The notes beneath the pieces are model-generated. The model saw only the letters and a list, made by a program, of their open reading frames with translations, was not told the origin of the DNA and did not search any database. A program made the translations under genes and the position numbers. A stretch of DNA of 53,539 nt from a virus. Its lineage: Duplodnaviria > Caudoviricetes. Positions 9,701 through 40,517 of the stretch are shown here, piece by piece (position 1 is the first letter of the stretch; every line of letters starts with the position of its first letter). The DNA lies in IMG/VR virus record IMGVR_UViG_3300033143_002559, positions 1 to 53,539 of that record; one strand, written 5' to 3'.

Positions 9701-10481
9701 GGGTCTGTGTCCCGAGGGCCTGTGCGACGTACATGGTGAAGTCGTCCCACCCGTGGACATCGCCAAACTCACCGACCCTCGGGGGCGGAGCCATGAGCTC
9801 GGAGCCCACAGAGAGATCCGTAGCCATCTCACGGGCCGCATCCCCAACCTCGGTGCCTTTATTTGCGAGGTAGCCGCCGGTCTTGGTTTGGAAGAGTGGA
9901 TTTGTGTAGCCGATTCCGGTCGCGCCAGCCACAGTTGGAGAGTTTGCCAGGAACCCGGCGCCGTTCTCTATAGCGATGCCCGCCGCCCTGGTAAAGAACG
10001 CAGCGGTCTTCGAATTCGATCGCTCGAGGGCCCGGCCGTACTCAGCTACCGTGGTAGCGGCCTTCTGTGTCGGGAGGTTTGACGCTACCCCGGCGATAAC
10101 GCCGACCTTCTCCAGCGCATCCCAAATGTCGGTGCCACTCCTAACAAACGGCGAATCCCAATGGCTCTCCGTCTCCTGCTCGTTTGCCTCGTCGTCCCCA
10201 GTAATCAGCTCACGGAGAGTGCGGCGCTCGGGGGGAGCAATCTGATCCCAGTAGGCGCCGGTGCTCCTGGCTTCCTCATTGAAGCGCCTCTGTCGCTCGA
10301 TCCTCGGCAGGGCGAGAAACTCAGGGTCGTCGCGGAGGTTGTGGAGGCGGGTCCTCTGGTTCATGGCCTCGAACCCGCCGAATTTTTCGTAGTCATTCAG
10401 CAGGTTTTCGATGTACAGCCTAGAGGTGCCATCCGGGAAGGCTACGACCTCTCCGCCGGGGAATCGGAGCCGGAGGGTCAT
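3744..10481 (-). CDS. Large polyvalent internal virion/ejection protein with zincin HExxH and C-terminal LPD38-like domain
   Basis: 2245 aa; Gly/Ala hydrophobic N-region with EEAGTEGIQ; TLYHESFH; C-terminal YYDKISAYEKSRNIII...KIPLPWGFN...NKTFWGGPI. Confidence 0.8.
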   Translation of the reverse strand: MTLRLRFPGGEVVAFPDGTSRLYIENLLNDYEKFGGFEAMNQRTRLHNLRDDPEFLALPRIERQRRFNEEARSTGAYWDQIAPPERRTLRELITGDDEANEQETESHWDSPFVRSGTDIWDALEKVGVIAGVASNLPTQKAATTVAEYGRALERSNSKTAAFFTRAAGIAIENGAGFLANSPTVAGATGIGYTNPLFQTKTGGYLANKGTEVGDAAREMATDLSVGSELMAPPPRVGEFGDVHGWDDFTMYVAQALGTQTPIMGSIVGAGLLPGGIAGAAALAGVGGAGTAAVAGGIGTGLVFAAGAGLETGSISEDLARAGFEGPEADIIAATYGVMAGALEAMPIANLLKRVPIVRDTFKKALVARVMSGGRQALEEAGTEGIQTLVEQTAVDIAHAEKGELEKVSWLTPEGIEQNISQVIESMIQGALIGGIMGGAGPGNIQQAEGVPGDQPLAVPEFEPMPPIEQGVAPIEGPSGPAAPVGEDLLPPAGGPEGPTIPPEVRNNARWNAAPLWLEGNDRLAWAQGQEIDLERIIEGRADVTLEDAIVQLEQAAEEAETFLSGGMEQPDQEDLSVLPEDEAAVEPGMVPIEEPGPLPAAPEGAVPATEAQPSAPLEGLVAPGGIEQPVQPTQADLDEIGAPVPVGEEAEIDRIAAKEEEGQAGIEPAGAVPAPIAPVTGEAAPAITFKPKQASRIQQTKNTSEYPKAVAAVLTQNEGKLLTGDEVQEKLMEMTGFGKAGIRIARVNDAIEEFVKLGVVEKVDGAYRVLPGRIDPDGFAINEAGMRYGIEVARAQAEYANENIEAEREEHERQYEFLKEMKGLVQVYERHPKTGKWFVPDENRDILPYFRAPKPTAAPVSGTKARAKSVEVHTDQVRESAIERGLLTDLSTVDDAVALLSKTGKGNMGLGPKPQMARPKDFRQESLEKPTETKLPTVQDIRRTFRGWGVRQTKPGRFQVTRKGQPVLQVNFTAPKVHSEASIQRMAKAYKMDPDEVRARLAAGTAVVKGSYTFYEATGAHIISLVAPHATPDTLYHESFHFAFHNVLEEKQRQAILKEYGTEEKAAKAYQQLAEKHFEGEKKLTVAERALKAIYDFARAFSESLGITPETAAGVMKKIATGDVYELQKGKKYTVTGDQGATALYSIENAILSAEEAQKEAEKAAKLAENELTDALKQAKKNPPGFGKVPKVIADELSPVERIADPDTFYSLEIADDTEHPAAMLPDETLTEHIRERGKRFLFQKIAPIVHVQEKLTEFGEQLNEAMDGFLKAQNFSARSGALLDWLENNLFVPFTDQLAAEGVSFSDFDLFRMAAHALERNPKIFAGHVTIPKQILQKKIDALEDKGLSEGMKVRALDRGNIGTIKVIDKEAKIADVYFHNPETGLRATVSMPLDQLKNEALATAEEKVAAIDKMVADDNVPHSGIEDDHAKEILNEMRDLTGSVTFDGEAGPNTTYGGSMGRISKRFSKIVRWKENTLFKAGLLSKEELKKWRDYKHYSPMRGKDPDILDVIAGGRRLPIEAIEMYGGKMWHRALARTARSFGLDKEVTKRLGTGRGYNPGRRPAAHRALGRRSFPQHSATLELITDTMEAAVRGEKNRVAKAVWNFAQRFKNATDAKGEKLFEINRPSKRMIYDEKTGAIKEVADGLSVTKDNVYNVWIDGKLYYIRHISPEMAPFVSALNNIGPANIPAFLRGFTFVNREMSKLFTSRNPAFAIPNAFRDAITAGIKLAGEKQFEGFGLKTMTKWGSSWAILKEYARRESRDTLDKMDQEKRSRVEAFKLAGGETSFWIIPDLERQMKMLQKNLTKAKKAGKEATALVVVKQIIPFIEDYNGAIENTMRFSVYERALEMNISKDKAARLARNITVDFTQQGTVAKALTPFYIFANASLQGSKMVYDSVTKNPKARAIVGSMVPMAMTWAFAARIAGGDDPEDGIPYYDKISAYEKSRNIIIMIPGTKGKRAKIPLPWGFNVAWMLGSTMADVIVGAVPPADAAARIVASGMGAFNPIGDNDLSTLLGWQQMVVPSWYDPINDVASNKTFWGGPIRPEKRFYKKSEQYGEEAPNYNNTFSSVSKPSQDFTKFLYKHTSIDVNPENIDYLAAGYFGGLGDLINRSISLAMSLPKRRAMPAAHEMPIVKSFYGDEGTFFAPQMYRANMADHYLRWETYKDLEKTNKSAAAEFYRRHVETLRFHKMVQATEKRVRLLKDQDVKINDSRMQKLFKQFNRRYNTLEKKTLRRRIKER

Positions 10482-15829: not shown

Positions 15830-18768
15830 TCTGTCACCTCCTCAACATATACGTCGATCTCGTAGGCGCCTAGCTTCCAAACCATGTTCTTCAGCCCGTG
15901 CTGATTTGTGCCCACAAACGCAAAGAAATCCGTTCCATCAGAACAAATTGGCAGGAAGTTGGACTCATAGGGGCCGGTTACATAGTGACCAAAATAATAA
16001 CCGGATCCGGTCGGGGCAGGCGTCAAAAACTGCGGGTCCTCCCAATCATAAGAATTAACATTCGTTGACCATGTTCGTCCACCATCAGTCGAGGTTATGA
16101 ACCCGGTCCTTTTGTTAGCCGAATAAGGGCTGCTGGCATATATGATCCTACAAACATAAGTTGGATGAACCGTATCAGCATCAACAACTGCTATTGAGTT
16201 CGCACCATGTTTCCAGTACCCGGAAGCGTCGAATTCACCATCAAACGACCGCCTGGTGGAAACCCCAAGGTGATTATCAGAAGGTCCGTATTCCACATAA
16301 GTAATGAGCCAGTCGGTGTTTCTCGATGCCCCGAAGGAATGAGCCTTGTATTTGGAGCCCGCGATAGAGGCAAAGATTGGCGGTGTATACGGCCGGAGCT
16401 GGTCAGGAGGAAAGTCCTGGAGAAATGCGTTTGCTGGTTTGGTGTCCCATTCCGCCCATGCGTTGAAGCCTCCGGCGCCTCCGCTGGAGCCGGTGTAGTA
16501 GATTTTCGCGCTTTGGGCAGAAATGGTAATATCGTATTCATCGCCAAGATTGCTGCTAGTACCAATCGCCCAAAGGGTTGAGGTTGTTGGGAATGTCATC
16601 GGGCTCCAAGTGAGTCCGTCCGATGCAGACTTGAGAACCGTTCCCTCTTTGCCAATAGCCAGGTATTCCCTCTTGGTAACTCCATCCCCGTCGTTGATAA
16701 CGGCAATGAGATCAACCGTGACGCCGCTCGATGGGGTAGTCCAGGTGACGCCGCTATCAGCAGAATGCCAAATGATGCCACCAAGACCAACGGCAACGAT
16801 GCTGTTCCCGTCCTTGGGCTCAAACGCTACTGAGGTCAGGGTGCTGGCCGGCGGATTGCCTCCGATTTGCCTCTCCGTCCAGTTGCCAGTCGCCGCATCT
16901 GGAGAAGTCCACACCCTGTTCCCAACGGCAATAAATTGGCTACCGTCATGTTGAGCATCGCAAATGAAATCTGACAAATCCCCAAAATCTGCATAGCTCG
17001 TGGCGCCGGCCTCGATCCTAACGCGCCGCCTAATCTTCCAAACCTTCCCGTTATCCATCAGGGCGTAGAAGCATCCATCCATCGCGTTGTAGGAGAGGTC
17101 AACAAACCCGCCGGCGCCGTGCCACGTATATTTGTATTCCCAGGTGATGCCGTCGAGCGAGAAGTAGGCTCTTGTTTTGGTGTAGTCTACTCCGTCTACC
17201 TCTTCTACATACGAATCGCCAACAGCGCAGCAACACCGGCCCTCGTCGTCCCATGCAACAGCGTGGAGATCAACCGTAATGGCGGGGTCGAGGATGTCAC
17301 AAGGCACCCAGTCGATCCCATTATTGTCTGATGTCACGCAGGCCCCGCCGGTTCCAACAGCAACCCATAAGTCGTGATATGGACTGTACGAAACCGAAGC
17401 CAGCGACTCGGTTGTGTTGCTTGTTCTCTTGGTGATCGAGGTTGGATTTGTGAAGGTGAGAATAACGCCGTCGCCGCCCTCCGCGTCACCAACGACAACG
17501 TAGTAGTGAGTCCCGCCTTCGACCTTCTGTGCAACGGCCATACTCCGCAGGGTAACGAGTGTATTGGTTGTGTAGATCGTGCCATTTTCGTCCCCAACAA
17601 GCCCACCCGCTCCACAGTAAAGCCAGGTACTAGGGGCCGCGGTTCTAGGCACCATAGAATATAGGGCCACTTCACCAAGCGGTGAGTCCTTTTCAAGATA
17701 ATTCGACGCCCAATTGTGATTGTAGGTTTCAAACGACCCACCCTCTGTTAGTGGAGGAGGGATTCTGTATTTTCCATCGGACCTAATGTGTTCACCCTGA
17801 AGCGTTAAAATATGTTTACTCGTTGAGAGCAGGCCAGCATCATAGGCTTTTGTAAAAGATATATCCTTGTTAGATGGGAGCGGGATTCCGTAGAGACCTT
17901 CACTACCAAACACGTTTCGAGAGAAGGCCGCACCTTCCTTGCCGGTAACGCAGATCGGCCAGAACGTTTCCTTGACGTCATCGAAGAAATCATACCGGAG
18001 CTCCCCGCCTGCCGAAATCGACGTGACTTCGATAGGCTCCCGTTCCGGCGCCTCAGTCTCCGCCTCATACCATGCGCCAAGATTCGTGCGACTGATGTTG
18101 GAGTAGAACGGGCCCGAAATGAGCCTCTCGTCAATCGGCTGATCCATGTTCACCGTGCCGTAGACAAGCCAGCCTCCCAGGGACTCAATCCTGATCGGCC
18201 ATATTGCACGATCGGCAGGATGGACTCTGAGGATCTCGTAGGGTTCATCGGTGAGGGCCGGCATGATCTCGTCGGTGAGGATGTGGTTGTCATCGACCAC
18301 CTTCTTGATCGTGTAGAGGTCGTTACCGTCCCCCGGCTCACGGATCAGGCACCCAGGCCACACCTCTTGCAGCCAGGCGGTGTTCTCGCCGTCGCTCTCC
18401 ACTTCGGCCTTGACCCCATCGGTCGTAATCGTGCCGTCCTTGTAGACGGAGTAGAGAGGCGCAACGACGCTGGAGACCCAGGTGAAGGGGGCCCACCGGC
18501 CGAACCAGATGGTGTGCCCTGAGCGGCTCACGTAGAAGGCGGAGTTCAGGTAGTCCTCGAGGTCAGACCCGGTGAGGTCCGCGGCCCATGATGCCATGCC
18601 AGCGTAGGCGGCCCGCCAGTTAGAGCGGAGGCTGATCGCGTTGTCGCTACGGGCGATGTAGAGGTTCTCGAGCTCGGTCATCCCCGGCGGGTCGATCTGT
18701 GTCGAGTGGGCCCGCAGGACCTTGGTGGCGCCTGAGAGGGGGATCGCCTTGTATTTCTTGTTTGCCAT
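15826..18768 (-). CDS. Tail protein: nozzle-like N-terminus plus Asp-box/BNR beta-propellers
   Basis: N-terminal ...TELENLYI...ISLR; many SxDGxTW boxes. Confidence 0.7.
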   Translation of the reverse strand: MANKKYKAIPLSGATKVLRAHSTQIDPPGMTELENLYIARSDNAISLRSNWRAAYAGMASWAADLTGSDLEDYLNSAFYVSRSGHTIWFGRWAPFTWVSSVVAPLYSVYKDGTITTDGVKAEVESDGENTAWLQEVWPGCLIREPGDGNDLYTIKKVVDDNHILTDEIMPALTDEPYEILRVHPADRAIWPIRIESLGGWLVYGTVNMDQPIDERLISGPFYSNISRTNLGAWYEAETEAPEREPIEVTSISAGGELRYDFFDDVKETFWPICVTGKEGAAFSRNVFGSEGLYGIPLPSNKDISFTKAYDAGLLSTSKHILTLQGEHIRSDGKYRIPPPLTEGGSFETYNHNWASNYLEKDSPLGEVALYSMVPRTAAPSTWLYCGAGGLVGDENGTIYTTNTLVTLRSMAVAQKVEGGTHYYVVVGDAEGGDGVILTFTNPTSITKRTSNTTESLASVSYSPYHDLWVAVGTGGACVTSDNNGIDWVPCDILDPAITVDLHAVAWDDEGRCCCAVGDSYVEEVDGVDYTKTRAYFSLDGITWEYKYTWHGAGGFVDLSYNAMDGCFYALMDNGKVWKIRRRVRIEAGATSYADFGDLSDFICDAQHDGSQFIAVGNRVWTSPDAATGNWTERQIGGNPPASTLTSVAFEPKDGNSIVAVGLGGIIWHSADSGVTWTTPSSGVTVDLIAVINDGDGVTKREYLAIGKEGTVLKSASDGLTWSPMTFPTTSTLWAIGTSSNLGDEYDITISAQSAKIYYTGSSGGAGGFNAWAEWDTKPANAFLQDFPPDQLRPYTPPIFASIAGSKYKAHSFGASRNTDWLITYVEYGPSDNHLGVSTRRSFDGEFDASGYWKHGANSIAVVDADTVHPTYVCRIIYASSPYSANKRTGFITSTDGGRTWSTNVNSYDWEDPQFLTPAPTGSGYYFGHYVTGPYESNFLPICSDGTDFFAFVGTNQHGLKNMVWKLGAYEIDVYVEEVTE

Positions 18769-19934: not shown

Positions 19935-22409
19935 CTAGCTATCCGGTATCAGATACACGGTCACTGATAGCCCATTGTCCTTGTCCACGGTCTCGTTGAT
20001 CGGAGATGACTTGTACAGGTCTGGGGACGTGGACAACCGCGCCCGGCCAGTCACAGGCTGATCCGCAGAGATTGTGCGGCTGTCAGTCACGATGCCGCCT
20101 GCGTTGGTCAGCGTATTGAAGTAGCCCCCGGTGGCCTTGATCGTGCCGGTGGCCGGGGAGGTTGGACTACCGCCCACGGTGTAGGTATAGGTATCTGCAG
20201 TGAGTACCTCGATCTCGAAGGCCCCGTTGTACTCATCCTGGTCGGCTCCCTCGATGAAAACAAAGTCACCAGTAGCCAGCCCATGACCTGTGTGAGTGAC
20301 GGTGGCCGTGTTCCCACCTACCCCAACATCCCCGATCCAGTCCACTGTTCCAGCAGCGCAGTCGTCGATGTCGATGTAGTCATCGGTTTGTGGGTCGCCG
20401 GTATGATCGCTCCCCCCAAACCGAATATCAGTCTGAGCTAGATCGGTGGATGCGTGAGTAAAGTCACCAGAGTCCCACAATGAATCAAGGTTGTGATCCC
20501 ACAGCTTGCACCTGATGGTGTCATCACCAGTTCCGCCGCCGTTGTTCGAATAGAACTCACACATCATCCAATCTGTGTGAACCGTCATTAAGCTGGACGC
20601 TGTAGATGTGAACCCGCTGTAGTTGAAATTTATTGAGAACTTCCAGCCCGTTTGGGGGTCTTGTGTTTGGACCTTGAAACTTACATTTGGACTGCCGGTG
20701 GCCTGATGACAGATCCCCGCTAAGTGCATTTGCTGATACACCGCATCAAAAATAAACCCACTTGAAACCCTGAACCAGAAGCGAAGATATACGGTTTCCT
20801 CGTCGGAGATTGTTTCGTAAACTCTAAGATCGGCACCATCCCCATCAAATACAGCCCTCGCCCCCCAGTCGCCGTTTTTATTCGCGCTGTCTGAGGCAGC
20901 AATCGTGCCGTGGGTTGTTACTGATCCAGAAAACTCACTCAGATCCTCTTCTTCAAAATCGTTATCAAACAAATTTCGCAGGGTGCTGCGCGTGATCGAC
21001 GTAACTGACTCCTGGTAAGGGAAGTCGCCAGCATCGCTCGACGCCAACAGGAGAACCCGCGCATCCTCAAGCACGGCCTGGGTGTCGATGTCCTTGACCG
21101 TCACCTGAGTCGTCACCGGATCCGCCACGAAGTTGACTACCGTGGTCCCTGCCGCCTTGTAAGAGATGTTGCCGGTGCAGCCTGAGAGGTTGACTGTGAT
21201 CGTGCCGCTAGTCCTGGCGAAGTAGAGTGTCGAGTTGTTCGCGTCATCTGCGGCGTTGTAACCAGAGAACGCAATTCCGGTCAACGTCATGGTTGTGGGT
21301 GAGGAGGTTCCAAACTCAATCGCATGGGTCTCAGCGGTGCCCTTGGTGAACTCGGTATTGTCCATCTCACCATTCGGGTCAGCCGCCTCGTCGTAGATCA
21401 AGTAGGAAGTATCAGCGGTGCCCTCGTAGTTCTTGAATACGCAGTCATCCATGTCAGCGCCACCGTGTGTGATCTGGCCGCAATCATCAAACGTATTGCC
21501 GGTGACTGTTTGGCCGGACCCAAAAGTACTTGCGGCTGCGCGTACAATAAGATTGTCTGTAATTGAAACGGTTGCATCCGTGTCAGAAAAATCAAAGATG
21601 AATCTCGTTGAATCGCCGGTGCCTGCCGCCTTGAGAACAGAGTTCTTGATGACACAATCGCAACCGGACCCCTGCGCGTTGATCTCGTAAAGGCCCGAAG
21701 CAACCGTAAGACTTCCTGACGGATCAACGAAAACGAGAACCTCGCCATCCATCTCGAAATATGTAGTGGTTGCGCCGCTGCCTATCTGCACTTCACCAGT
21801 ACCAAAATACACGCCGTTGACTTCTCGAATGATCCCATATCCGTAGAGTGTAGTCGTGCCACGGTCTGCCTCTTCGATATCGGCTAACGTCACCTCGTCG
21901 CCAAGCGTGCCACCCGTGAACGAATACCCATCAAGGTATCTGAGGACATCCATCCACATATTGATGACGTTCTTCGAGTTGCCGGTGTGATTCGCCTCAA
22001 TGCCCCACCGATCAACATTGGCGAGCGTAGGGCCAGTGAACGCATCCATGTCTTGCCAGAAGTAAAACCAGCCACCGAAGTAGGTGTCCGAGCCAAACAT
22101 TGTAATGTGGTTCGATTCAGTCGAGCCGTCGTAGACCCATAACTGATACCCGTCGTTGGCCTCATCTTCCATGTACGGCATGTTCGTGGTGTTGATCCAA
22201 CCACGCAGGGTTTTCCCAACACCAGTCGAAGGTGCGCCACCATTGTCGTAGTACGAGTCCTCGCCATCCGAACGAGTAATCCCCGACATCGACGCCAAGC
22301 CTTCGACTTTCAGATCAGTGTCCCCGGTCGTCAGGTTCACCCAACCAGTGTTGACATCAGCATCATCCAACTCCGTGTGGTTCAATAGGGTGAGGGTCGG
22401 AGCGGCCAA
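19935..22409 (-). CDS. Virion appendage protein with inserted lectin-like domain
   Basis: 824 aa, Thr/Gly/Asp-rich; SITRS...GNTATVTHTGHGLATGD motif interrupted by a ~223-aa domain. Confidence 0.7.
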   Translation of the reverse strand: MAAPTLTLLNHTELDDADVNTGWVNLTTGDTDLKVEGLASMSGITRSDGEDSYYDNGGAPSTGVGKTLRGWINTTNMPYMEDEANDGYQLWVYDGSTESNHITMFGSDTYFGGWFYFWQDMDAFTGPTLANVDRWGIEANHTGNSKNVINMWMDVLRYLDGYSFTGGTLGDEVTLADIEEADRGTTTLYGYGIIREVNGVYFGTGEVQIGSGATTTYFEMDGEVLVFVDPSGSLTVASGLYEINAQGSGCDCVIKNSVLKAAGTGDSTRFIFDFSDTDATVSITDNLIVRAAASTFGSGQTVTGNTFDDCGQITHGGADMDDCVFKNYEGTADTSYLIYDEAADPNGEMDNTEFTKGTAETHAIEFGTSSPTTMTLTGIAFSGYNAADDANNSTLYFARTSGTITVNLSGCTGNISYKAAGTTVVNFVADPVTTQVTVKDIDTQAVLEDARVLLLASSDAGDFPYQESVTSITRSTLRNLFDNDFEEEDLSEFSGSVTTHGTIAASDSANKNGDWGARAVFDGDGADLRVYETISDEETVYLRFWFRVSSGFIFDAVYQQMHLAGICHQATGSPNVSFKVQTQDPQTGWKFSINFNYSGFTSTASSLMTVHTDWMMCEFYSNNGGGTGDDTIRCKLWDHNLDSLWDSGDFTHASTDLAQTDIRFGGSDHTGDPQTDDYIDIDDCAAGTVDWIGDVGVGGNTATVTHTGHGLATGDFVFIEGADQDEYNGAFEIEVLTADTYTYTVGGSPTSPATGTIKATGGYFNTLTNAGGIVTDSRTISADQPVTGRARLSTSPDLYKSSPINETVDKDNGLSVTVYLIPDS

Positions 22410-27246: not shown

Positions 27247-27434
27247 TGCCGGTCCTTTAGGCCCCTCTTGTACGCAATCTGATCTATGGCCTGGAGCACC
27301 CCTTCGGCTATGCGCTGCCTGTAGGTCCGCGAAGTCACTCTCCCCTGGCAGGGCTTACGGACCTCTTCCATGACGGCCCTGTGACAGTAGACCCAAATCG
27401 GCTTGAGGTCTGGAGGGATTACCACTTGCGCCAT
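27240..27434 (-). CDS. Hypothetical protein
   Basis: 64-aa ORF overlapping both neighbours. Confidence 0.5.
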   Translation of the reverse strand: MAQVVIPPDLKPIWVYCHRAVMEEVRKPCQGRVTSRTYRQRIAEGVLQAIDQIAYKRGLKDRQC

Positions 27435-29053
27435 ATACTTTGCCAGTCCCAGGCGGGTTTACGGTCAGCCTTGGTATTGGTTGCCCCGACAATTGGGTTA
27501 AAGCCAGCAAGCTCCATCGTGCCGAGCGTGGCGTCAACATCGGCCCCGGCACCAGACGCACTCACGGTTGGATTGTGCCCCTGGAGAACCATCGTACCAA
27601 GTGTTGGGTTTACCTTGATCTCGTTCAGCACATCGTAGATGTACGCGCCCATTTCCCACAGGCCGGTAGCGGTGCCTACGGTTGGGTTGAAACCAGCAAG
27701 AACCATAGCTCCGACTGGGTCTTGCTCCACCTCTGTTGGGCCGGTATCTAACCCGCCAATCCAATCAGTGTTATCAAGCTCAATATCATCAAAGTAAAGC
27801 TCAGATGTCGCACCCGGAACAGCGGAGCCACTAGCACTCGCGCCGCACCGAAGCGTGTCACACAAGGCCGCTGATTGTGCCCCGGTGTAATCACTACCGA
27901 CTGAGGTTCCGTTTACTTTGAGTTCGCCGCCGCCGTCTGAACCAGACCCGGCCTGCCAATGAAATTCAATAAGCATCCAGGTATCAAGAGCCGGGTCTTC
28001 AGCACACACGCCATCTAAGATCGTGGTGTTTCCAGACCCGTTCCAGTAAATACAACGCCACCTAAAGGCTTGGTCGTCTGCTTGCACCCTCAAATTAAGT
28101 TCCATGAGGGATTGGGTATCGTCTTTTATTTCAAATACCTTGCATGATTGATAATCTGTAGGCACATTGAAGGCTGCATTCACCTTAAGGTAACCCCTAA
28201 AATACACCTCATCCTGGTCAGCTACCGTCTTGTAAGCGTAAACACCATTGTTCGTACCATCAAACGTTATCTTCGCACCCTTGCTGCCGCTGTTGATGTG
28301 GGCAGGAGTCGAAGAAACGGTGAGAGTGTTTGACCCCTCCTCCACCTTAGATGTGAACTCAGTGGTAAAGGCATCGACTTCGGTCTCTATGCCGGATGCG
28401 AAAACCACACCTACTGGGCCTAGCCAGTCAGCATCGTCAGCACCAAAATTGTCAACGTCAAGGGTTGAGCTTCCAGACGTTGTTCCCTTGTAACATCCGG
28501 CATAAATCGTATCGTGAGTCTTCGATACCGATGTCATCGTGACATTGTTTGAATCCCATACCAAAACTCCCGAGTCGTTATAAACCCTGGCTCTTATGGT
28601 GTCGTCGCCCGTGCCACCATTGTTGTGCGAGTAAAGCTCAAACCGGTAGTATCCACTTGGTTTTGTGGCATAGCTGCTTGTTGATGATGTGTAGCCACCA
28701 TAGCCAAATTGTACCCTCCACGCCCAGTCCCCGCTTCCATCCACTATGGCCCTGAGTTGAGCTCCTTCATCATACGCAGTTTCACCAGCAGCCAAAATCG
28801 TTAACCCGCTTGAGTTCGGCAAATCAAGGCTAGAAACATCTATGTATGCACGAGCATAGATTGTTAATTCAGCCGAGATGTCCTTGTACACGCAGGCTTG
28901 ATCGTTTGTCCCGCCTAATGTGCAGCGTGCCCCGTACGTCCCTGTGTGTGGCGCAGAACTGGATGCCGCTACGGAATTGCCGGATTCAGTCAGCGAACCA
29001 GTTACGTCAGTGAGATCGCCTTCTTCAAAGTCGGCTTCAAATATGTTTGCCAT
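27419..29053 (-). CDS. Fiber/appendage protein: two lectin (ConA/LamG-like) domains plus three GxMxLxGxNPxV repeats
   Basis: Tandem homologous domains ending DWLGP/DWIGG; repeats GAMVLAGFNPTV, GTMVLQGHNPTV, GTMELAGFNPIV. Confidence 0.7.
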   Translation of the reverse strand: MANIFEADFEEGDLTDVTGSLTESGNSVAASSSAPHTGTYGARCTLGGTNDQACVYKDISAELTIYARAYIDVSSLDLPNSSGLTILAAGETAYDEGAQLRAIVDGSGDWAWRVQFGYGGYTSSTSSYATKPSGYYRFELYSHNNGGTGDDTIRARVYNDSGVLVWDSNNVTMTSVSKTHDTIYAGCYKGTTSGSSTLDVDNFGADDADWLGPVGVVFASGIETEVDAFTTEFTSKVEEGSNTLTVSSTPAHINSGSKGAKITFDGTNNGVYAYKTVADQDEVYFRGYLKVNAAFNVPTDYQSCKVFEIKDDTQSLMELNLRVQADDQAFRWRCIYWNGSGNTTILDGVCAEDPALDTWMLIEFHWQAGSGSDGGGELKVNGTSVGSDYTGAQSAALCDTLRCGASASGSAVPGATSELYFDDIELDNTDWIGGLDTGPTEVEQDPVGAMVLAGFNPTVGTATGLWEMGAYIYDVLNEIKVNPTLGTMVLQGHNPTVSASGAGADVDATLGTMELAGFNPIVGATNTKADRKPAWDWQSIWRKW

Positions 29054-30786
29054 CAGTAATCTCCCTGATCGCCAGTTACAATGTCATCGGGCCAAGCTGC
29101 GGCTGGCAGAAACGCCTCGCTATACGGCCCCCCAAGATCAACTCCAGTGTCAATACACGGAGAGCCAGCCAACAGGGTGTAGTCATTGTTGTCCCTATCG
29201 GTGAACAACGGGTCTTCACCTGTGGAGTGTTCAGCAAATCCATACGTTGAAAACCATGTGTCGAGGGTGTACTGATTCCACTGACGGCTGATCACATTGG
29301 TTGACTCATCTTCCTTGCGGAGAAGGTTGTAGTCAGAGTCAAATCCGGTGTAGTCATCGAGCGACGTGTAGAGGTAGATCGCGTGCTGCACAGCACCGAT
29401 GATGATGTTGTTCTTGATCTTGGTCCCTTGTGGGCTACTGTCACCCTCGATGTAGATGCAGCGGGTTGAGTAACCGGCCCCGTCCAAAATGTTCCCATAG
29501 ACCAGCGTCCCGTAAGAGCCGCTCCCCACACCAGATCCACCAATCCCAAGCAGAATATTAGTGTAGCCATTATCGTATGTCCTATATACGATATTGCCCC
29601 AAATTTCATTGCTATGCGCCCGTTGCCACAGCCTGATCTCATATCCCTGACCGCCCCACCCGTTGTCCCATATCCTGTTTAGATAGACATGGTTGGAGTA
29701 AGAATCTATTTCTACGAGAATCCCGCATTGTCCGTTCCCTGAGATGGTGTTCTTGTAAATGTGACAATTCACGCAACCCTCGCCAGAGGAGCCGTCAAGG
29801 TCAATCCCGTCGAGATCGTTGTCGTGAGAGTGGTTCCCAACCATCGTGCAATTATCGACCCAAAGAAACTTCAGCCCGTAACCATCGAACGGGGTCGTAC
29901 CTGAATACCCAGTGGTTCGGCTGTGGTGAGTTTCGTTGTTGGAAAATGTGACTCGCAAGAGCTTGTTGGTCGGCCCGCCGCCGGCAGATATGTTGTGAGC
30001 GCCGCAATACGAAACCGTGTTCCCATCAGCCAGAGAGTCTGCCGCCTTGAGTGTGACCCCCTCGCCAGCACACCACTCGACGGTGCAGTTTTGGATGGTC
30101 ACATGATGGGTAAGTGCCTGACCGCCATCACAGCGGAATCCCCCATTCTCATCGTTCCCACGTTTAATATGGATGCCGTCAACCATGATGTAGGTTTGTC
30201 GGTACAGCCTAAAGCACCCGATCTGCGGAACCTCAATTACCACCCCTGATGTGGTGGGGTTTCCACCCGTGTCATCGCGGACGTAGACGGTATCGTAATT
30301 CAAGCCATCATTGTCGCCGTATCCCCACTCAAGGTCATTCAGAGCACCGAGCCCGTTAAAGTCTGGAACAGCCCCGCCCTTGGTGAGACTCACGTCATCC
30401 ATGAACACCAGCCCAGGATCTATGAGAGTTGGGTCTCCTCCGCCGGAAAGCTCACAGAAGAACTCTCCGGGCTTGGTTGTTGATTCTGTCCATTTGTGCG
30501 TTCCGGTAGTGATATCAACCGAGCCATCGAAGACCGGAGTGTGACCTGGATAAGCGAGGTGTGAGATATCAGAAACAGCAGAGCCGCTGGCTTTGAACGA
30601 CAACATCGTTGTGTTGTAATCTCCACCAGTATCAGCGAGATAGACGTTATCCCCGGCAGACAAGGCAGTTGCCCAAATGTTGTGGTTGGCAACGCTCATG
30701 CACTCACTCGCGATGTCCGGGTCTCCGTCCAGGCACGCGGCAAGACTCACCGCTGTCCCGAGCTCCCGGGCTGTGTAGTTCGCCAT
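29053..30786 (-). CDS. Right-handed parallel beta-helix protein (depolymerase/tailspike-like)
   Basis: N/D-ladder repeats (GNHSHDNDLDGI, YKNTISGNGQCGI); SDYNLL; DPLFTD...DYTLLAGSPCIDTG. Confidence 0.85.
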   Translation of the reverse strand: MANYTARELGTAVSLAACLDGDPDIASECMSVANHNIWATALSAGDNVYLADTGGDYNTTMLSFKASGSAVSDISHLAYPGHTPVFDGSVDITTGTHKWTESTTKPGEFFCELSGGGDPTLIDPGLVFMDDVSLTKGGAVPDFNGLGALNDLEWGYGDNDGLNYDTVYVRDDTGGNPTTSGVVIEVPQIGCFRLYRQTYIMVDGIHIKRGNDENGGFRCDGGQALTHHVTIQNCTVEWCAGEGVTLKAADSLADGNTVSYCGAHNISAGGGPTNKLLRVTFSNNETHHSRTTGYSGTTPFDGYGLKFLWVDNCTMVGNHSHDNDLDGIDLDGSSGEGCVNCHIYKNTISGNGQCGILVEIDSYSNHVYLNRIWDNGWGGQGYEIRLWQRAHSNEIWGNIVYRTYDNGYTNILLGIGGSGVGSGSYGTLVYGNILDGAGYSTRCIYIEGDSSPQGTKIKNNIIIGAVQHAIYLYTSLDDYTGFDSDYNLLRKEDESTNVISRQWNQYTLDTWFSTYGFAEHSTGEDPLFTDRDNNDYTLLAGSPCIDTGVDLGGPYSEAFLPAAAWPDDIVTGDQGDY

Positions 30787-32432
30787 CAGTAGTCCCCCGG
30801 ATCACCAAGCAAGACGCCATCCGGCCACGTTGACCCTTCTAGCAACATCTCGTTGTACGGAGGTCCGAGAATTTCGCCAATGCCGATGCACGGAGAGTTG
30901 GACTTCAGGGTGAAGTCGTGGTTCTCGGCGTCGGTGAACTGCGGGTCATCGGGGATAGAGTGGGCGTCTTGCGGATTTCCAAGCCCGTCTGTGAGCGCCT
31001 GCCACTGTGCAAGCGTGTACCCGGTTGTGCCGAGCTTGATAAGCCCGACGCCATTACTATTGAAGCAATTATAATCAGAGTCGATGTCCACGAAGGTAGC
31101 GTCATTGCACCGCAGGTCTGGACCTGTTGATCCAGCAACAATGTTGTTTCTCAAATACACATCTATGGTGCCAGAAAGCTCAATCCCCCAGGAGCATCCG
31201 TAGACAACATTCCCGACAATGAAGTTCGTGCCATCCTGACCAGAAGCGAAGAACGTTCTAATGGAAGACCTTGATGTATCGGTCGCCCCCCATGTGACGT
31301 TGCCCATGATGGTGCAATGAGAACTACGAGACAGCCCGATGTTGCTGCCACCGTCGATGTTGTCATACACCATGTTGTGCTTGATCATGTTGTAATACGA
31401 GAACTCAAGAAGAATCTGCTGGATGGTCCCAGGCTGGCCGTCGAAGTCACCACCGTTTTCATAGATTAGGTTTTCCGATATGGTGTTCCACCTACAGCCC
31501 CAGTGATTAGGGTAAGCCCCGCCGCCATCCAACCTGATCGCACCAGAGTCGTTGTGGTGCCAGGTTGACTTGGTGAGAATCGAGTTATCCATCCCAAAGG
31601 CTTTGATGCCAGCGCCGTCGTTCGAAACGCCGTCGATGAAGACTTGGTGATGGATCTCGCAGCCCGTTACAGTCAACCGTTCAAGCTTGTTGACTTCACC
31701 GGCGCCAGTTCCGATTCCATCCCCTGAGTTGTAGGAAATGTGGCAAGAGTCGATGAGACCATCGTCGGAGTGTGCGGCCCACTTGATCCCCACGAAGTTC
31801 CACGAGACATCGCAATTGCTAACGATGCACCAGTCGCTATTGTTGAGGGCATAGATCCCAAGCCAATCTGAGTGCATAATCGTGAGACCATCAAATTTCA
31901 CGTAGTCAACGCCATCAAACCTAGCAACGTATCTACGTGAGCCTGATTCCGTGCCGGGGCTAGTGTAACGAGTATCTGGATCTGTGGCGCTGTACTGGTA
32001 GAGAATGTCCGATTCCCAGCACCAGTCTTGGTCTGCTGCCAGGTTCGCCGGAAGCGCCTTCTTAGCACCACGCACCCCATCAAGAAATACCATGATTGGC
32101 TCGTCGGCGGTGACGGTGGCCTTCCACACATTCGTATCATGTAAGGTCCAGCCGGTTATGATGTTCGATCCCTTGAATACAGGAGTGTCGCCTGGGTATG
32201 CGAGTACCTCGATGTAGTTTCCTATCGAACCCGAGCCTTGAGGAGTCAGATACCCCCGGTAATCTAATCCAGCAGCTGAATCGTCCGCACAATAAATTTT
32301 ATCTCCAGCCACAAACGTCTCACCGTTGAAAACACTCAAATTCATGCACTCGGCGACAAGGGTTGGGTCGCCATCTACAGCCGCTGCCTTGTTCGCCGCC
32401 GTGCCGTCTTCTCGAACAGTGTAATTAGGCAT
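30786..32432 (-). CDS. Right-handed parallel beta-helix protein, paralog of 29053-30786
   Basis: Homologous N-terminus (MPNYTVRE/MANYTARE), SDYNCF, DPQFTD...DFTLKSNSPCIG; also ends in GDY. Confidence 0.85.
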   Translation of the reverse strand: MPNYTVREDGTAANKAAAVDGDPTLVAECMNLSVFNGETFVAGDKIYCADDSAAGLDYRGYLTPQGSGSIGNYIEVLAYPGDTPVFKGSNIITGWTLHDTNVWKATVTADEPIMVFLDGVRGAKKALPANLAADQDWCWESDILYQYSATDPDTRYTSPGTESGSRRYVARFDGVDYVKFDGLTIMHSDWLGIYALNNSDWCIVSNCDVSWNFVGIKWAAHSDDGLIDSCHISYNSGDGIGTGAGEVNKLERLTVTGCEIHHQVFIDGVSNDGAGIKAFGMDNSILTKSTWHHNDSGAIRLDGGGAYPNHWGCRWNTISENLIYENGGDFDGQPGTIQQILLEFSYYNMIKHNMVYDNIDGGSNIGLSRSSHCTIMGNVTWGATDTSRSSIRTFFASGQDGTNFIVGNVVYGCSWGIELSGTIDVYLRNNIVAGSTGPDLRCNDATFVDIDSDYNCFNSNGVGLIKLGTTGYTLAQWQALTDGLGNPQDAHSIPDDPQFTDAENHDFTLKSNSPCIGIGEILGPPYNEMLLEGSTWPDGVLLGDPGDY

Positions 32433-36968: not shown

Positions 36969-38847
36969 CGTCGATGACTCTTGCTTGGAGCTGTTGGATG
37001 ATGTTCGTGAGTTGGGCGATGGTTTGCGCCATAGCCTCGCCAGCCATTTTGGAACCCTCGATGTCGAGCTCATTCTTAACCTCCTGCATATCGAACTCCG
37101 CTAGGAATTCGTTGAGGACGAGATCATACACATCAAGGAAGTTTCCGGCGAGGGCAGCAAGTGGCCCGCCCTCAACAGCCACCGATCCCATCTCCGCCGC
37201 ACCGTTGAAGATTTCCGGTAGCTTGTCGACCATTGCCAGGATCTCTTGTTTCTTGATCGCCTTGGACATGGTTTGCGAGTTGACCTTGGTCTCGATGATG
37301 ATTTGGTCTTTCCAGTATCCCGGCGGGAACTCGATGGTCATGGCCTTCATCATCTCGCCAAGCTCCTCGTCCTGGGCGTCGATGAAGATTTGCATGGACT
37401 GGGGATTGAACTGGCGGTAGCGCGAGTATTGCATCTGGACGATGCGGGCGAGGAACTCCCGGTAGCGGGTCATCATCTCGAACAGGGGTTGCATGGCCCG
37501 CTCGAGGATGGCGCTGGTTCCGGTCGCGGTCGGCCGTTCCGCGAGCTCCTGGCCGAAGAAGGCCGGCGGGATAGAGGCGGCATCGTGCATGTGCTTGACG
37601 ATGCGCTCGAGCAGGTTGAGGAGGAAGCCAACATCGCCGGAGGCCAGGCGGACCTCCATGATCCCTTTGCGGAGATCGTCGATCATCGCATCCTCAACTT
37701 CGGCCAGGCCGGGGCCGAGTTCCCCGTTATCGAGGAAGTTGGAGAGTTTGAGGCGCTTGAGGGCGATGAGGAGCGGGTTGATCGCTCGCACGCCAGCGTC
37801 GAGGAGGATGTTCATAATCGCCACGTATGCGCGGTGGAGCTGATCCAGCACGGAGCAGAGCGATTTGCCGTCCATTGAGGCGAGGGTTGGGTGCCAGGCG
37901 AAGGTTGAGTACGGGCGGGGGAAGTCCTGGTAGAAGGGGCCATGCGCTGCCAGCCACGTTTTCTGTTTCAGGTCGAGGATGATGACGACCTCTTCGCCGT
38001 CGTAGACGGTGTAGGTCTCCATGAGGGAGACCTCCGAGAGTTCGGTCTTGTTCGCCTTGGGCTCAATCCCGTGGGCAGCATGGATCTCTTCCTTGGCGAG
38101 TTCGGCATCGGCATCCTCGCGGGCCTCACCGATCGACATAGGATCCAGGTCTTTGCGGTAGTAGTCCTTGTCCTGTTCGATCTTGATTTTCCCCGGCGTA
38201 CTCTCGAACCGCTCACAGAACCACCTTGCCTCATCGACCGATGCGGAGGGGATGGGGTGATAGATCCGGCGGGTATCGACAACGTAGGGGAAGCACCCCT
38301 CGTCCTCGATAATGGTTTTGGTTTGTTCAACGTCCTCGCCCATCTCATCGACATCCCAGTACCGGATTTTTCGCTCACGGAAGGACCAGGCGGTTTTGAC
38401 GACGGACTTGGTGAAGATTTGGGCGCCGCGGATCGAGTCGTTAACGACGGCCTCGTATTTCGAGCGATCGGCCATCCAGTCGATGAGGACATCGTGCGCG
38501 GAGGCCATTTCGGTAAATCCAGGCCGGCCCTTGCCGACGAAGATTTGATCCTGGGCGAACACTGGGTTGGAGATGTTCGACCCGGCGTGCCTGCAAATCT
38601 CGAACGTGATGGTGAAATCGAGTTGCGCGTCTTTGTCGCCGCGGGCCTTGGGATCTCCGGTGGCCCAGTAGTTTTCCTCGCAGGACGTCCATTCCGGCTC
38701 GAGGGTGTCCTTGCGGTTCTCCACCACCTCGTCGATCTCGTCACAGAGGGCGACAACGAAGGCATCGAACGCCTCATCTTCTCCGAGCTTCTTGACTAAG
38801 TGGGTTATTTCGTAGGTTTGCGGGGGTTTCCGTGTGGCTTGAGTCAT
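36871..38847 (-). CDS. Portal protein
   Basis: 658 aa right after TerL; DGKSLCSVLDQLH, ERPTATGTSAIL. Confidence 0.88.
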   Translation of the reverse strand: MTQATRKPPQTYEITHLVKKLGEDEAFDAFVVALCDEIDEVVENRKDTLEPEWTSCEENYWATGDPKARGDKDAQLDFTITFEICRHAGSNISNPVFAQDQIFVGKGRPGFTEMASAHDVLIDWMADRSKYEAVVNDSIRGAQIFTKSVVKTAWSFRERKIRYWDVDEMGEDVEQTKTIIEDEGCFPYVVDTRRIYHPIPSASVDEARWFCERFESTPGKIKIEQDKDYYRKDLDPMSIGEAREDADAELAKEEIHAAHGIEPKANKTELSEVSLMETYTVYDGEEVVIILDLKQKTWLAAHGPFYQDFPRPYSTFAWHPTLASMDGKSLCSVLDQLHRAYVAIMNILLDAGVRAINPLLIALKRLKLSNFLDNGELGPGLAEVEDAMIDDLRKGIMEVRLASGDVGFLLNLLERIVKHMHDAASIPPAFFGQELAERPTATGTSAILERAMQPLFEMMTRYREFLARIVQMQYSRYRQFNPQSMQIFIDAQDEELGEMMKAMTIEFPPGYWKDQIIIETKVNSQTMSKAIKKQEILAMVDKLPEIFNGAAEMGSVAVEGGPLAALAGNFLDVYDLVLNEFLAEFDMQEVKNELDIEGSKMAGEAMAQTIAQLTNIIQQLQARVIDDESQLVDIGGQVSDVPPAGMEPDGDQPPQASA

Positions 38848-40517
38848 CGTCTACCCCCACCTCTCACCAGTCCATAACGGACGGGCATCGGATGAACATT
38901 GGTTCCGTATTCGTCATCGCTCTCATCTCGAATATGGGTCGTGGAGTAGCGTTTGTCATCCTCTGCGTAGATCCACCAGTCAACGTGCATTGGCATGGTG
39001 TCCGCCAGCGCAGGGCTGTCTCCCATGATTGTTCCATCTGGTGCGATGTTGAGGTTGACCAGATGGGATACAACTTCTTCATGATCAGGGTATAGCACAA
39101 AAACCTGATGATCCGCAACGTAGGGATGGAATCTGTCGAGCAAGCGCCTGCCCTTGCTCTGCCCTCCTGGGGTAAACGGTTCGATTTTGATGTAGATGCT
39201 CCGCTTGACCATTTCCTGCTTCAGCCAGGCGCCAACCCACACTTGCATGGCGCCGGCCTCGGGGATGAGCAAGCGGGCATCCCACTTGATCCCCATGTCG
39301 AGGAGGGCGGTGATTTGCGCCATCGGGTTTGGGTGTTCCTCGCGCCAGTAGTCGAGCAGGCACCCGAAGCGCATTGACGGCAGCCACCAGAACGCGGTGA
39401 TACCGGAATCGTTGGAGTCTTTATTGAGTCCGCCGGTCGGATCCATCGCCACGGTAACGAAGCCGAGCGATGCTGGGTAAGCCACGCCGTCGATGTAGAT
39501 GGCTTGCAGTTTGCCGTTAGAGTCATGTGATCTGGTGTAGGGCAGGAAGTCCTCACGCCGGAAGCGCCGGATCCCCTCGTCGAGAAGGACGTTGAGCATC
39601 TGGTGAGCGAACTTGTAGGATCCCATTTGCCGGAGGGTTTTCTTGAGTCCCTCCATTGTTCGCCGCTCGGGGAAGATGGGTTGCCCCTCCTGCCACACGA
39701 GCTCGCGGTTGGGCTCCAGCACGCTCTCGTTGATGTACTCCTCGTTATCGGTTGGGAGTTTCAGGCCGAGGGAATCGAGGAAGTTATACCACTGGTCGTT
39801 GCAGTAGCATCCGAGAACCATCTTGCAGTAGTCGGGGCTCTTGAGGAGCTGTTCATAGTAGCCCTTCTCGCCGCCGGGCCAGAGGGTGCCGATGATGAGG
39901 AGGATGGAGTTTTCATCCTCGAACAGCGGGTCCAGGGTCTCAAGGAACTCGACGGCGCCGACCATCTCCGCGGCTGAGTTGGCGGCTTTGTTGTCCACAC
40001 CGTCGTCGACGATGATGATGTCGTAGTGCCCGCCGACGATACCGGACTTGACGCCGGCCAGGGTGACGGATGCCTCGGGGCTCTCGATGGTGCGCGTGAC
40101 GGAGAATTCCGTAGCGGTCCAGACGTTGCGCCTGGCATCCGGTGGTGGGACAAGGCCGGGGAAGTAGAGGCGCATGGCGCGGCCCTGGAGGATGTGTTTG
40201 ATCTTCCGGCCCTTCTTCTTCGCCTCGTCCAAGTTGTGCATACACATCAAGATACGTTTGTTTGGGTCGTTGATTAGGATGTGGACGATGTAGGCGATGT
40301 TGAGGAGCGAGGTCTTGAAGTGACCTCGAGGGACCATGCAGAGGAACCAGCGGTTTCCTTCGTCGAGCCCCTTTTGGAACCACATCGCCATAGCGAAGTG
40401 CAGCACGAGGGAGAGCTTGTGGAATTCGCAGAGATACCAGGCGGTCCAGAAGATGCTTTTCCGACACTTTGCTTGGATTTTCTTGATGTCAATGGGCGCT
40501 TCTTCGGCGCCTGGCAT
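38844..40517 (-). CDS. terL: Terminase large subunit
   Basis: Walker A PRGHFKTS, Walker B GGHYDIIIVDD, IIGTLW, nuclease VAMDP...DSGI. Confidence 0.95.
   Translation of the reverse strand: MPGAEEAPIDIKKIQAKCRKSIFWTAWYLCEFHKLSLVLHFAMAMWFQKGLDEGNRWFLCMVPRGHFKTSLLNIAYIVHILINDPNKRILMCMHNLDEAKKKGRKIKHILQGRAMRLYFPGLVPPPDARRNVWTATEFSVTRTIESPEASVTLAGVKSGIVGGHYDIIIVDDGVDNKAANSAAEMVGAVEFLETLDPLFEDENSILLIIGTLWPGGEKGYYEQLLKSPDYCKMVLGCYCNDQWYNFLDSLGLKLPTDNEEYINESVLEPNRELVWQEGQPIFPERRTMEGLKKTLRQMGSYKFAHQMLNVLLDEGIRRFRREDFLPYTRSHDSNGKLQAIYIDGVAYPASLGFVTVAMDPTGGLNKDSNDSGITAFWWLPSMRFGCLLDYWREEHPNPMAQITALLDMGIKWDARLLIPEAGAMQVWVGAWLKQEMVKRSIYIKIEPFTPGGQSKGRRLLDRFHPYVADHQVFVLYPDHEEVVSHLVNLNIAPDGTIMGDSPALADTMPMHVDWWIYAEDDKRYSTTHIRDESDDEYGTNVHPMPVRYGLVRGGGRR

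Follow-up and report, generated by a model that had tools for sequence, protein, structure and literature searches.

Analysis of a complete 53.5-kb virus record (IMGVR_UViG_3300033143_002559, Caudoviricetes; 53,539 nucleotides, hereafter the window) points to a family of beta-helix enzymes divided at their last structural element, with the missing piece encoded by the next gene. Three consecutive minus-strand genes encode two beta-helix enzymes, P0001 and P0002, and a partner protein, P0003 (Table 1). Both enzymes stop at a ...DY end, and the eight-residue segment that follows this end in their fused relatives is found in P0003 as WEMGAYIY. The split, its conservation, the coupling of the genes and a covariation between their products are all directly visible, and they suggest to us that P0001/P0002 and P0003 probably bind to form a non-covalent, two-subunit polysaccharide-active enzyme joined through a split beta-hairpin.

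P0001 and P0002 are full-length paralogs (32% identity, E-value 8e-49) and both exceed the Pfam cut-offs for NosD and for the right-handed parallel beta-helix (Beta_helix, PF13229; 47.7 bits for P0001 and 61 bits for P0002, with a cut-off of 25.9). They share the C-terminal pattern DPxFTD...DxTL...SPCI..G...WPD, ending WPDxxxxGD(P/Q)GDY, and neither has a closing GAY(E) segment in its own chain. Both gene junctions, P0001/P0002 and P0002/P0003, read TAC TGA TGG C, in which the stop codon and the next ATG overlap by one base. A preliminary description of this DNA had drawn attention to the shared pattern, to the identical and coupled stop point, and to WEMGAYIY, absent from both enzymes and lying between repeats in the next gene; the translations confirm all three, with the motif exactly at 27635-27658. 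That description also held that a choice-of-anchor Q module normally closes with a GAYE strand. Five canonical relatives (P0016, P0017, P0018, P0020 and P0024) bear this out, as they pass the NCBIfam choice-of-anchor Q model (NF041518) with matches that extend through the GAYE segment, where the profile ends.

The comparison of fused with split homologues that had been proposed as a check was made with an exhaustive, profile-free search in which the last 125 residues of P0002 served as query, and which returned 1541 proteins at E <= 0.001. Among the homologues collected, 44 end at ...DY (P0005-P0010 and P0012 end where P0002 ends) and 44 run on with GxG-W[EDN][IMV]GA[YF][VLI][YF] after ...Q..Y, as in P0022 (...DQDSYGSWEMGAYAF...). 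The truncated chains are therefore without a strand that their relatives carry in cis. The residue pattern of the motif is identical in 40 fused forms and 15 partner forms, and more distant relatives terminate in the canonical ..DIGAYE. The canonical relatives score 26-45 bits with NF041518, and the fused variant P0122 scores 14.3 bits, over positions 11-32 of 58 only; P0001 and P0002 have no match to the model at E <= 0.1, where at least 25 bits had been looked for. As the window enzymes fall below this model, they belong to a divergent branch of the choice-of-anchor Q module. Patterns run over representative prokaryote genomes matched 61 stretches, none of them confirmed. Two of the fused enzymes, P0014 and P0060 (L001:3394-5646), contain, close to the N-terminus, an inserted sugar-binding-like domain with homology to the N-terminal domains found in separate partners, so that the same parts occur in another arrangement.

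P0003 consists of two lectin-like beta-sandwich domains followed by a C-terminal region with repeats, motif and tail. Its three repeats follow the pattern xGxMxLxGxNPxV, and WEMGAYIY is set among them. All seven P0003 homologues in the database (7/7) keep W[DE][MI]G[AP][YF][IV]Y, and in the partner alignment (A3) the W, G and A of the motif are invariant. The eight-residue motif is the sole constant part of the partners, which are highly modular: they combine lectin- or lyase-like beta-sandwiches, three repeat types and several kinds of C-terminal tail, and two of them (P0181 and the partner at locus L009) contain CBM_4_9 above the Pfam cut-off. Short basic or aromatic tails terminate other partners too (e.g. 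RAARLLHVVMRG), as well as fused enzymes (NRTCRLLHLIMRG). No GP variant of the motif turned up when the window and the loci were scanned for one. In the database, P0175 is a 499-residue variant of P0003, 92% identical, with a 45-residue deletion in the second lectin-like domain and with motif and tail intact. The first lectin-like domain recurs within the window in an 824-residue protein (19935-22409, minus strand; residues 477-697) at 34% identity (E-value 6e-29).

The arrangement extends well beyond this virus. A survey of viral and metagenome contigs yielded 44 distinct loci, of which 31 are truncated and 13 fused. In 31/31 truncated loci the next open reading frame (ORF) starts on the enzyme stop codon (30 ATG, 1 GTG), and the protein it encodes begins MA. 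The motif lies in a downstream ORF in 21 of the 31, a count made up of 15 loci, then L016, L017, L022, L038 and L046, and finally L040, where the motif itself is cut by the contig end; at L047 it is in the second downstream ORF. Ten of the 31 have no visible motif, and in nine of these the next ORF is cut by the contig end. L037 and L036 share one gene pair, which in L037 breaks off 11 bases short of the motif. Two further viral loci fit the same pattern: at L061 the enzyme ends DDRDNY and a later ORF has two copies of GAWDMGA(F/Y)IY, and at L092 the enzyme ends SQEDY and a later ORF has GWEIGAYVY. Across six-frame ORFs of 42 related loci (392,556 residues), W..GA[YF] occurs 34 times, always in fused enzymes or in ORFs downstream of truncated ones, a restriction that excludes chance. 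In the six-frame translation of the window it occurs in two places only (WEMGAYIY and WKLGAYEI). The split arrangement is conserved over about 35 loci.

Two natural variants of the split are informative. At L016, L019, L020, L022 and L025, where the enzyme has GDQDDY or ADQDDY as its last residues, the following protein opens with MAWEIGAYIY (MAWEIGAYIYEGDTTLTV); the cut therefore falls exactly at the turn. These loci are ends of short contigs and cover only the start of the next protein. In the second variant, a single record represented by L054, L063 and L068 (L068:8001-11086), the enzyme is shorter by one strand, with ...LRPGTMWPGQ at its end, and the partner (L063/L068) has two complete strand-turn-strand units, GVVLGSQNSYGIGWEIGAYIY and GVLLANQNGWGAGWDIGAYVY, followed by a highly basic tail ending RRRGSQHRKRHSGQIRKKKK. 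In both variants the partner has what the enzyme is without. Four database proteins stop at this earlier ...STWP(G) point. A survey of viral contigs for the earlier split point recovered only the L054/L063/L068 record, known beforehand; of the 21 loci returned, a further 17 that were examined hold enzymes that carry the GAY segment in their own chain or have a different C-terminus.

The two halves also covary. Enzyme residue -4 is Q or R and partner motif residue 2 is E or D, and the 24 available pairs comprise 13 Q-E, 11 R-D and no mismatches (raw two-by-two table, Fisher p = 2.8e-6, uncorrected for relatedness). On a tree of 21 enzymes, built after removal of the last eight residues that contain the trait, each trait changes 7 times and the two change jointly every time; independent pairs on well-supported branches agree in direction in 4/4 cases. 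R at position -4 occurs in 13/44 truncated forms and in 0/44 fused forms.

Structure models were examined for the fused form and for the partner. The AlphaFold2 (AF2) model of the fused homologue P0122 has a mean predicted local distance difference test score (pLDDT) of 90.7, with the motif at 80-83 and the tail beyond it below 50. A short strand (LGD) is followed by a turn (QDDY) and then by beta-bridges at W530 and Y535. Its fold resembles GH120 XylC, GH136 LnbX (5gqc, Foldseek E-value 5.2e-12), BT_1002 and Pel9A, along with phage beta-helix proteins; the best BFVD phage beta-helix match (E-value 2.7e-16) and several solved tailspikes indicate a tailspike-like beta-helix body in this fused homologue. 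The window enzymes have no PHROG match, and their N-terminus lines up with the usual beginning of beta-helix proteins of the bacterial type. The AF2 model of P0003 has a mean pLDDT of 57.2 and contains two beta-sandwich domains; in this isolated chain, residues 432-544, including the motif, fall below 50 and the motif has no secondary structure. These low values could be the sign of a region that becomes ordered only once it is bound, or an effect of the shallow alignment, which has 12 rows. A complex prediction from alignments A1 (P0002) and A3 (C-terminus of P0003) gave a score of 0.01 (mark 0.32) and, run without controls, is used neither way.

These results lead us to a model of protein fission. 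A hairpin, ...VVTGD(Q/R)xxY - turn - W(E/D)xGAY(I/V)Y, would have been the last structural element of the enzyme and would have been split at the turn. The first strand would have stayed on the enzyme, and the second is encoded in the translationally coupled P0003, alongside the two lectin-like beta-sandwiches, the short repeats and the basic tail of that protein. Coupling would secure joint production of both subunits. After synthesis, the exposed enzyme strand would pair with WEMGAYIY of P0003, placing Q574 opposite E467, and the catalytic subunit would thereby be rejoined, non-covalently and by strand pairing, to a subunit that binds sugar or serves as anchor. Both the physical pairing and this hairpin register we infer. 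The preliminary description had likewise proposed completion in trans; that proposal is partly supported, in that the enzymes are without the segment, the coupled downstream gene has it, and the arrangement is conserved and covaries.

Several points weigh against this reading. The survey has one clear exception, L013 (L013:1605-2417), whose complete 271-residue next ORF is partner-like and is without the motif. The numbers of enzymes and motifs are mismatched: in the window a single good motif stands against two enzymes, and L009, L038 and L061 each have one enzyme and two motifs, which at L009 lie in the one partner. In P0001 the covarying position is P, neither Q nor R. The segment in the P0122 model consists of two single-residue beta-bridges, with no long closing strand. 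Most of the truncated loci were sampled from related metagenomes that form a single group, with short contigs. The independent-pairs test has only 4 pairs (sign-test p = 0.125), and the covariation could be inflated if the last enzyme codons and the partner gene are inherited together in a single cassette. Q-E and R-D types are both found with every kind of partner repeat, which is evidence against simple co-inheritance, short of excluding it.

It could also be that the gene was split at a domain border and that the products do not bind. The enzyme would then be complete at ...DY and would act free, the motif would belong to the partner's stalk, and the adjacency seen in fused forms would be a matter of gene history. 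The motif-less partner at L013 and the L068 partner, which holds both strands itself, speak for such a history, and the partner repeats do resemble the last strand of the enzyme (VLxGxNPTV versus VVTGDQ). We nevertheless consider it unlikely, given a Q-E/R-D pairing that is exceptionless in 24 pairs and an R that is confined to split forms. Moreover, the GAYE segment of canonical relatives lies inside the curated domain model, the motif of the fused model is ordered whereas the tail beyond it is disordered, and at L068 the strand by which the enzyme is shorter is precisely the one that its partner has gained.

Alternatively, the downstream protein may be a transient helper, an assembly chaperone that lends its strand while the beta-helix cap folds and is absent from the final enzyme. 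The nearest solved folds include GH136 LnbX, whose activity depends on a co-expressed adjacent gene, its product a proposed chaperone (PMC7335108), and translational coupling in 31/31 loci would suit a chaperone equally well. However, CBM_4_9 in P0181 and the L009 partner, together with long repeat stalks, is a better fit to a working subunit, and in fused forms the segment remains in the mature chain. Even the GH136 precedent speaks for a lasting partnership: the Roseburia pair is active only if co-expressed and co-purified, and for Eubacterium ramulus the crystal structure shows the domain fused and forming part of the active site (PMC7335108). A purely transient role is therefore, in our estimate, quite improbable.

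That read-through or a frameshift at TAC TGA TGG C makes a single polypeptide of the enzyme and the next protein is very improbable even though the junction sequence is kept in 31/31 loci, because reading through the TGA adds only 12 residues to P0001 or 16 to P0002 before a stop and reaches no motif (on which ground stop-codon read-through was rejected), the next gene is in the -1 frame at a junction without a slippery heptamer, the conserved bases are accounted for by the D-Y-stop and M-A codons, and TAA and TAG stops are also present among the loci.

A second plug had been proposed in the preliminary description: WKLGAYEI, said to end the 980-residue protein P0004. The coordinates (15856-15879) are correct, and the segment lies nine residues before the end of the protein rather than at it. 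The only P0004 homologue found, P0174 (43% identical), has AVKLDSIILD at this site, and WKLGAYEI deviates from the family pattern of the motif at positions 2, 7 and 8. We rejected this candidate as unsupported; on these comparisons WKLGAYEI is probably unrelated to the split system, and this part of the proposed completion in trans falls away.

Returning to the two-subunit reading, we ask where such an enzyme would act. Tentatively, the P0003 tail may anchor the complex on the virion and so let enzyme cassettes be exchanged or mixed. Virion placement is drawn solely from gene position: the window block lies between head and tail genes, the L068 genes follow a portal gene, the fused form at L001 lies between terminase and portal genes, and the L009 genes follow an endolysin gene. 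Base composition provides soft evidence. G+C content of the three-gene block (window 27600-32400: both enzymes and the P0003 lectin domains) is 0.48-0.555, and that of the flanking DNA is 0.58-0.63; at the 3' end of P0003, the final 180 bases (three repeats and tail) lie in a 400-base bin at 0.583, which is flank-like, and the motif is in the adjoining bin at 0.545. The pattern is compatible with a resident anchor on which enzyme and lectin cassettes are exchanged.

Table 1. Positions of the split-enzyme genes and their elements in the window
Feature	Position	Strand	Description
P0001, beta-helix enzyme 1	30786..32432	-	548 residues, C-terminal GDPGDY; Pfam Beta_helix 47.7 bits, NosD 32.3 bits, both above cut-off
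P0002, beta-helix enzyme 2	29053..30786	-	577 residues, C-terminal GDQGDY; start codon overlaps P0001 stop by one base
P0003, partner protein	27419..29053	-	544 residues; start codon overlaps P0002 stop by one base
P0001 C-terminal module (residues 496-548)	30789..30947	-	DPQFTD..DFTL..SPCIGIG..PYN..STWPDGVLLGDPGDY; without WExGAY segment; alignable to truncated and fused homologues
P0002 C-terminal module (residues 525-577)	29056..29214	-	DPLFTD..DYTL..SPCIDTG..PYS..AAWPDDIVTGDQGDY; Q574 covaries with partner E
WEMGAYIY, candidate trans-encoded strand (P0003 residues 466-473)	27635..27658	-	Residue pattern equals segment after ...DY in 40 fused forms
Repeat 1, VGAMVLAGFNPTV (P0003 residues 447-459)	27677..27715	-	Homologous NPTV repeats in partners of L011, L015, L046 and L036
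Repeat 2, LGTMVLQGHNPTV (P0003 residues 485-497)	27563..27601	-	
Repeat 3, LGTMELAGFNPIV (P0003 residues 510-522)	27488..27526	-	
P0003 basic/aromatic C-terminal tail, DRKPAWDWQSIWRKW	27422..27466	-	
WKLGAYEI in P0004, 980 residues (residues 964-971)	15856..15879	-	Earlier proposed second plug

Elsewhere in the window, a large terminase gene lies at 38844-40517, and an ORF of 2245 residues (3744-10481, minus strand) lies at the end of the late gene block. PHROGs gave no matches for P0001, P0002, P0003 or P0004, and most other structural genes of the window that were tested had no family match. Searches of a phage GenBank collection, by DNA and by protein, and of PDB sequences returned no matches.

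If the two-subunit reading is true, it would add a third way in which phages mount enzymes that cut host sugars, through the extreme C-terminus instead of an N-terminal adaptor, and it would provide a natural, short and genetically portable docking tag. It would also change annotation, as dozens of clusters ending ...DY or ...STWP would be halves of pairs, not truncated pseudogenes. The Q-E/R-D covariation yields a simple prediction that is directly testable by charge swap. A bolder extension, which we consider doubtful, is that a plug-and-socket system is widespread in uncultivated phages. Beta-helix cassettes would clip to a sugar-binding anchor via the split hairpin, the Q-E or R-D pair would set the fit and provide two orthogonal pairing types, and one scaffold could accept a swapped-in enzyme or a mixture of enzymes with no need for the attachment to evolve anew. 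A published description of this split was not found in the literature searched.

One of the closest known families is the choice-of-anchor Q module (NF041518), with which the window system shares the first half, DPxF..DxxL..SPxI..G, and a closing ..GAY.. segment. The window variant differs in its second half, LGxPYN..STWPDGVVTGDQDDY, then GxGWEIGAYIY, and in that the closing segment sits on another polypeptide. In mechanism, the closest analogy is donor-strand complementation in chaperone-usher pili, where a fold without its last strand is completed by a strand of another polypeptide. There the recipient is an Ig-like pilin, whereas here it would be the hairpin of a beta-helix cap, with binding proposed, and no exchange of strands from chaperone to subunit is implied.

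The closest precedent is the GH136 lacto-N-biosidase (LnbX/LnbY; Lnb136II/Lnb136I), a beta-helix glycosidase that needs the product of the adjacent gene and whose parts are separate or fused depending on the organism (PMC7335108). The likeness lies in a beta-helix enzyme with an adjacent-gene partner, split or fused, and in the match of the P0122 model to 5gqc. The GH136 partner is a domain of eight helices, which wraps around the beta-helix and helps to form the active site, whereas here the shared element is a strand of only eight residues in the C-terminal cap, and beta-sandwich domains make up the partner. No sequence relation between the GH136 partner and P0003-type partners was seen, and no homology to the helical LnbY was found: the P0003 model is a beta-sandwich, and Pfam and protein atlas leads were only lectin- or lyase-like beta-sandwiches. 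Finally, branched tailspike complexes of the CBA120 type carry several depolymerase-like beta-helix proteins on a shared scaffold (PMC8825819), and they resemble the window in having several such proteins in one phage. Attachment in those complexes runs through N-terminal anchor and assembly domains, whereas here the beta-helix begins at residue 1 and the proposed contact is the extreme C-terminus.

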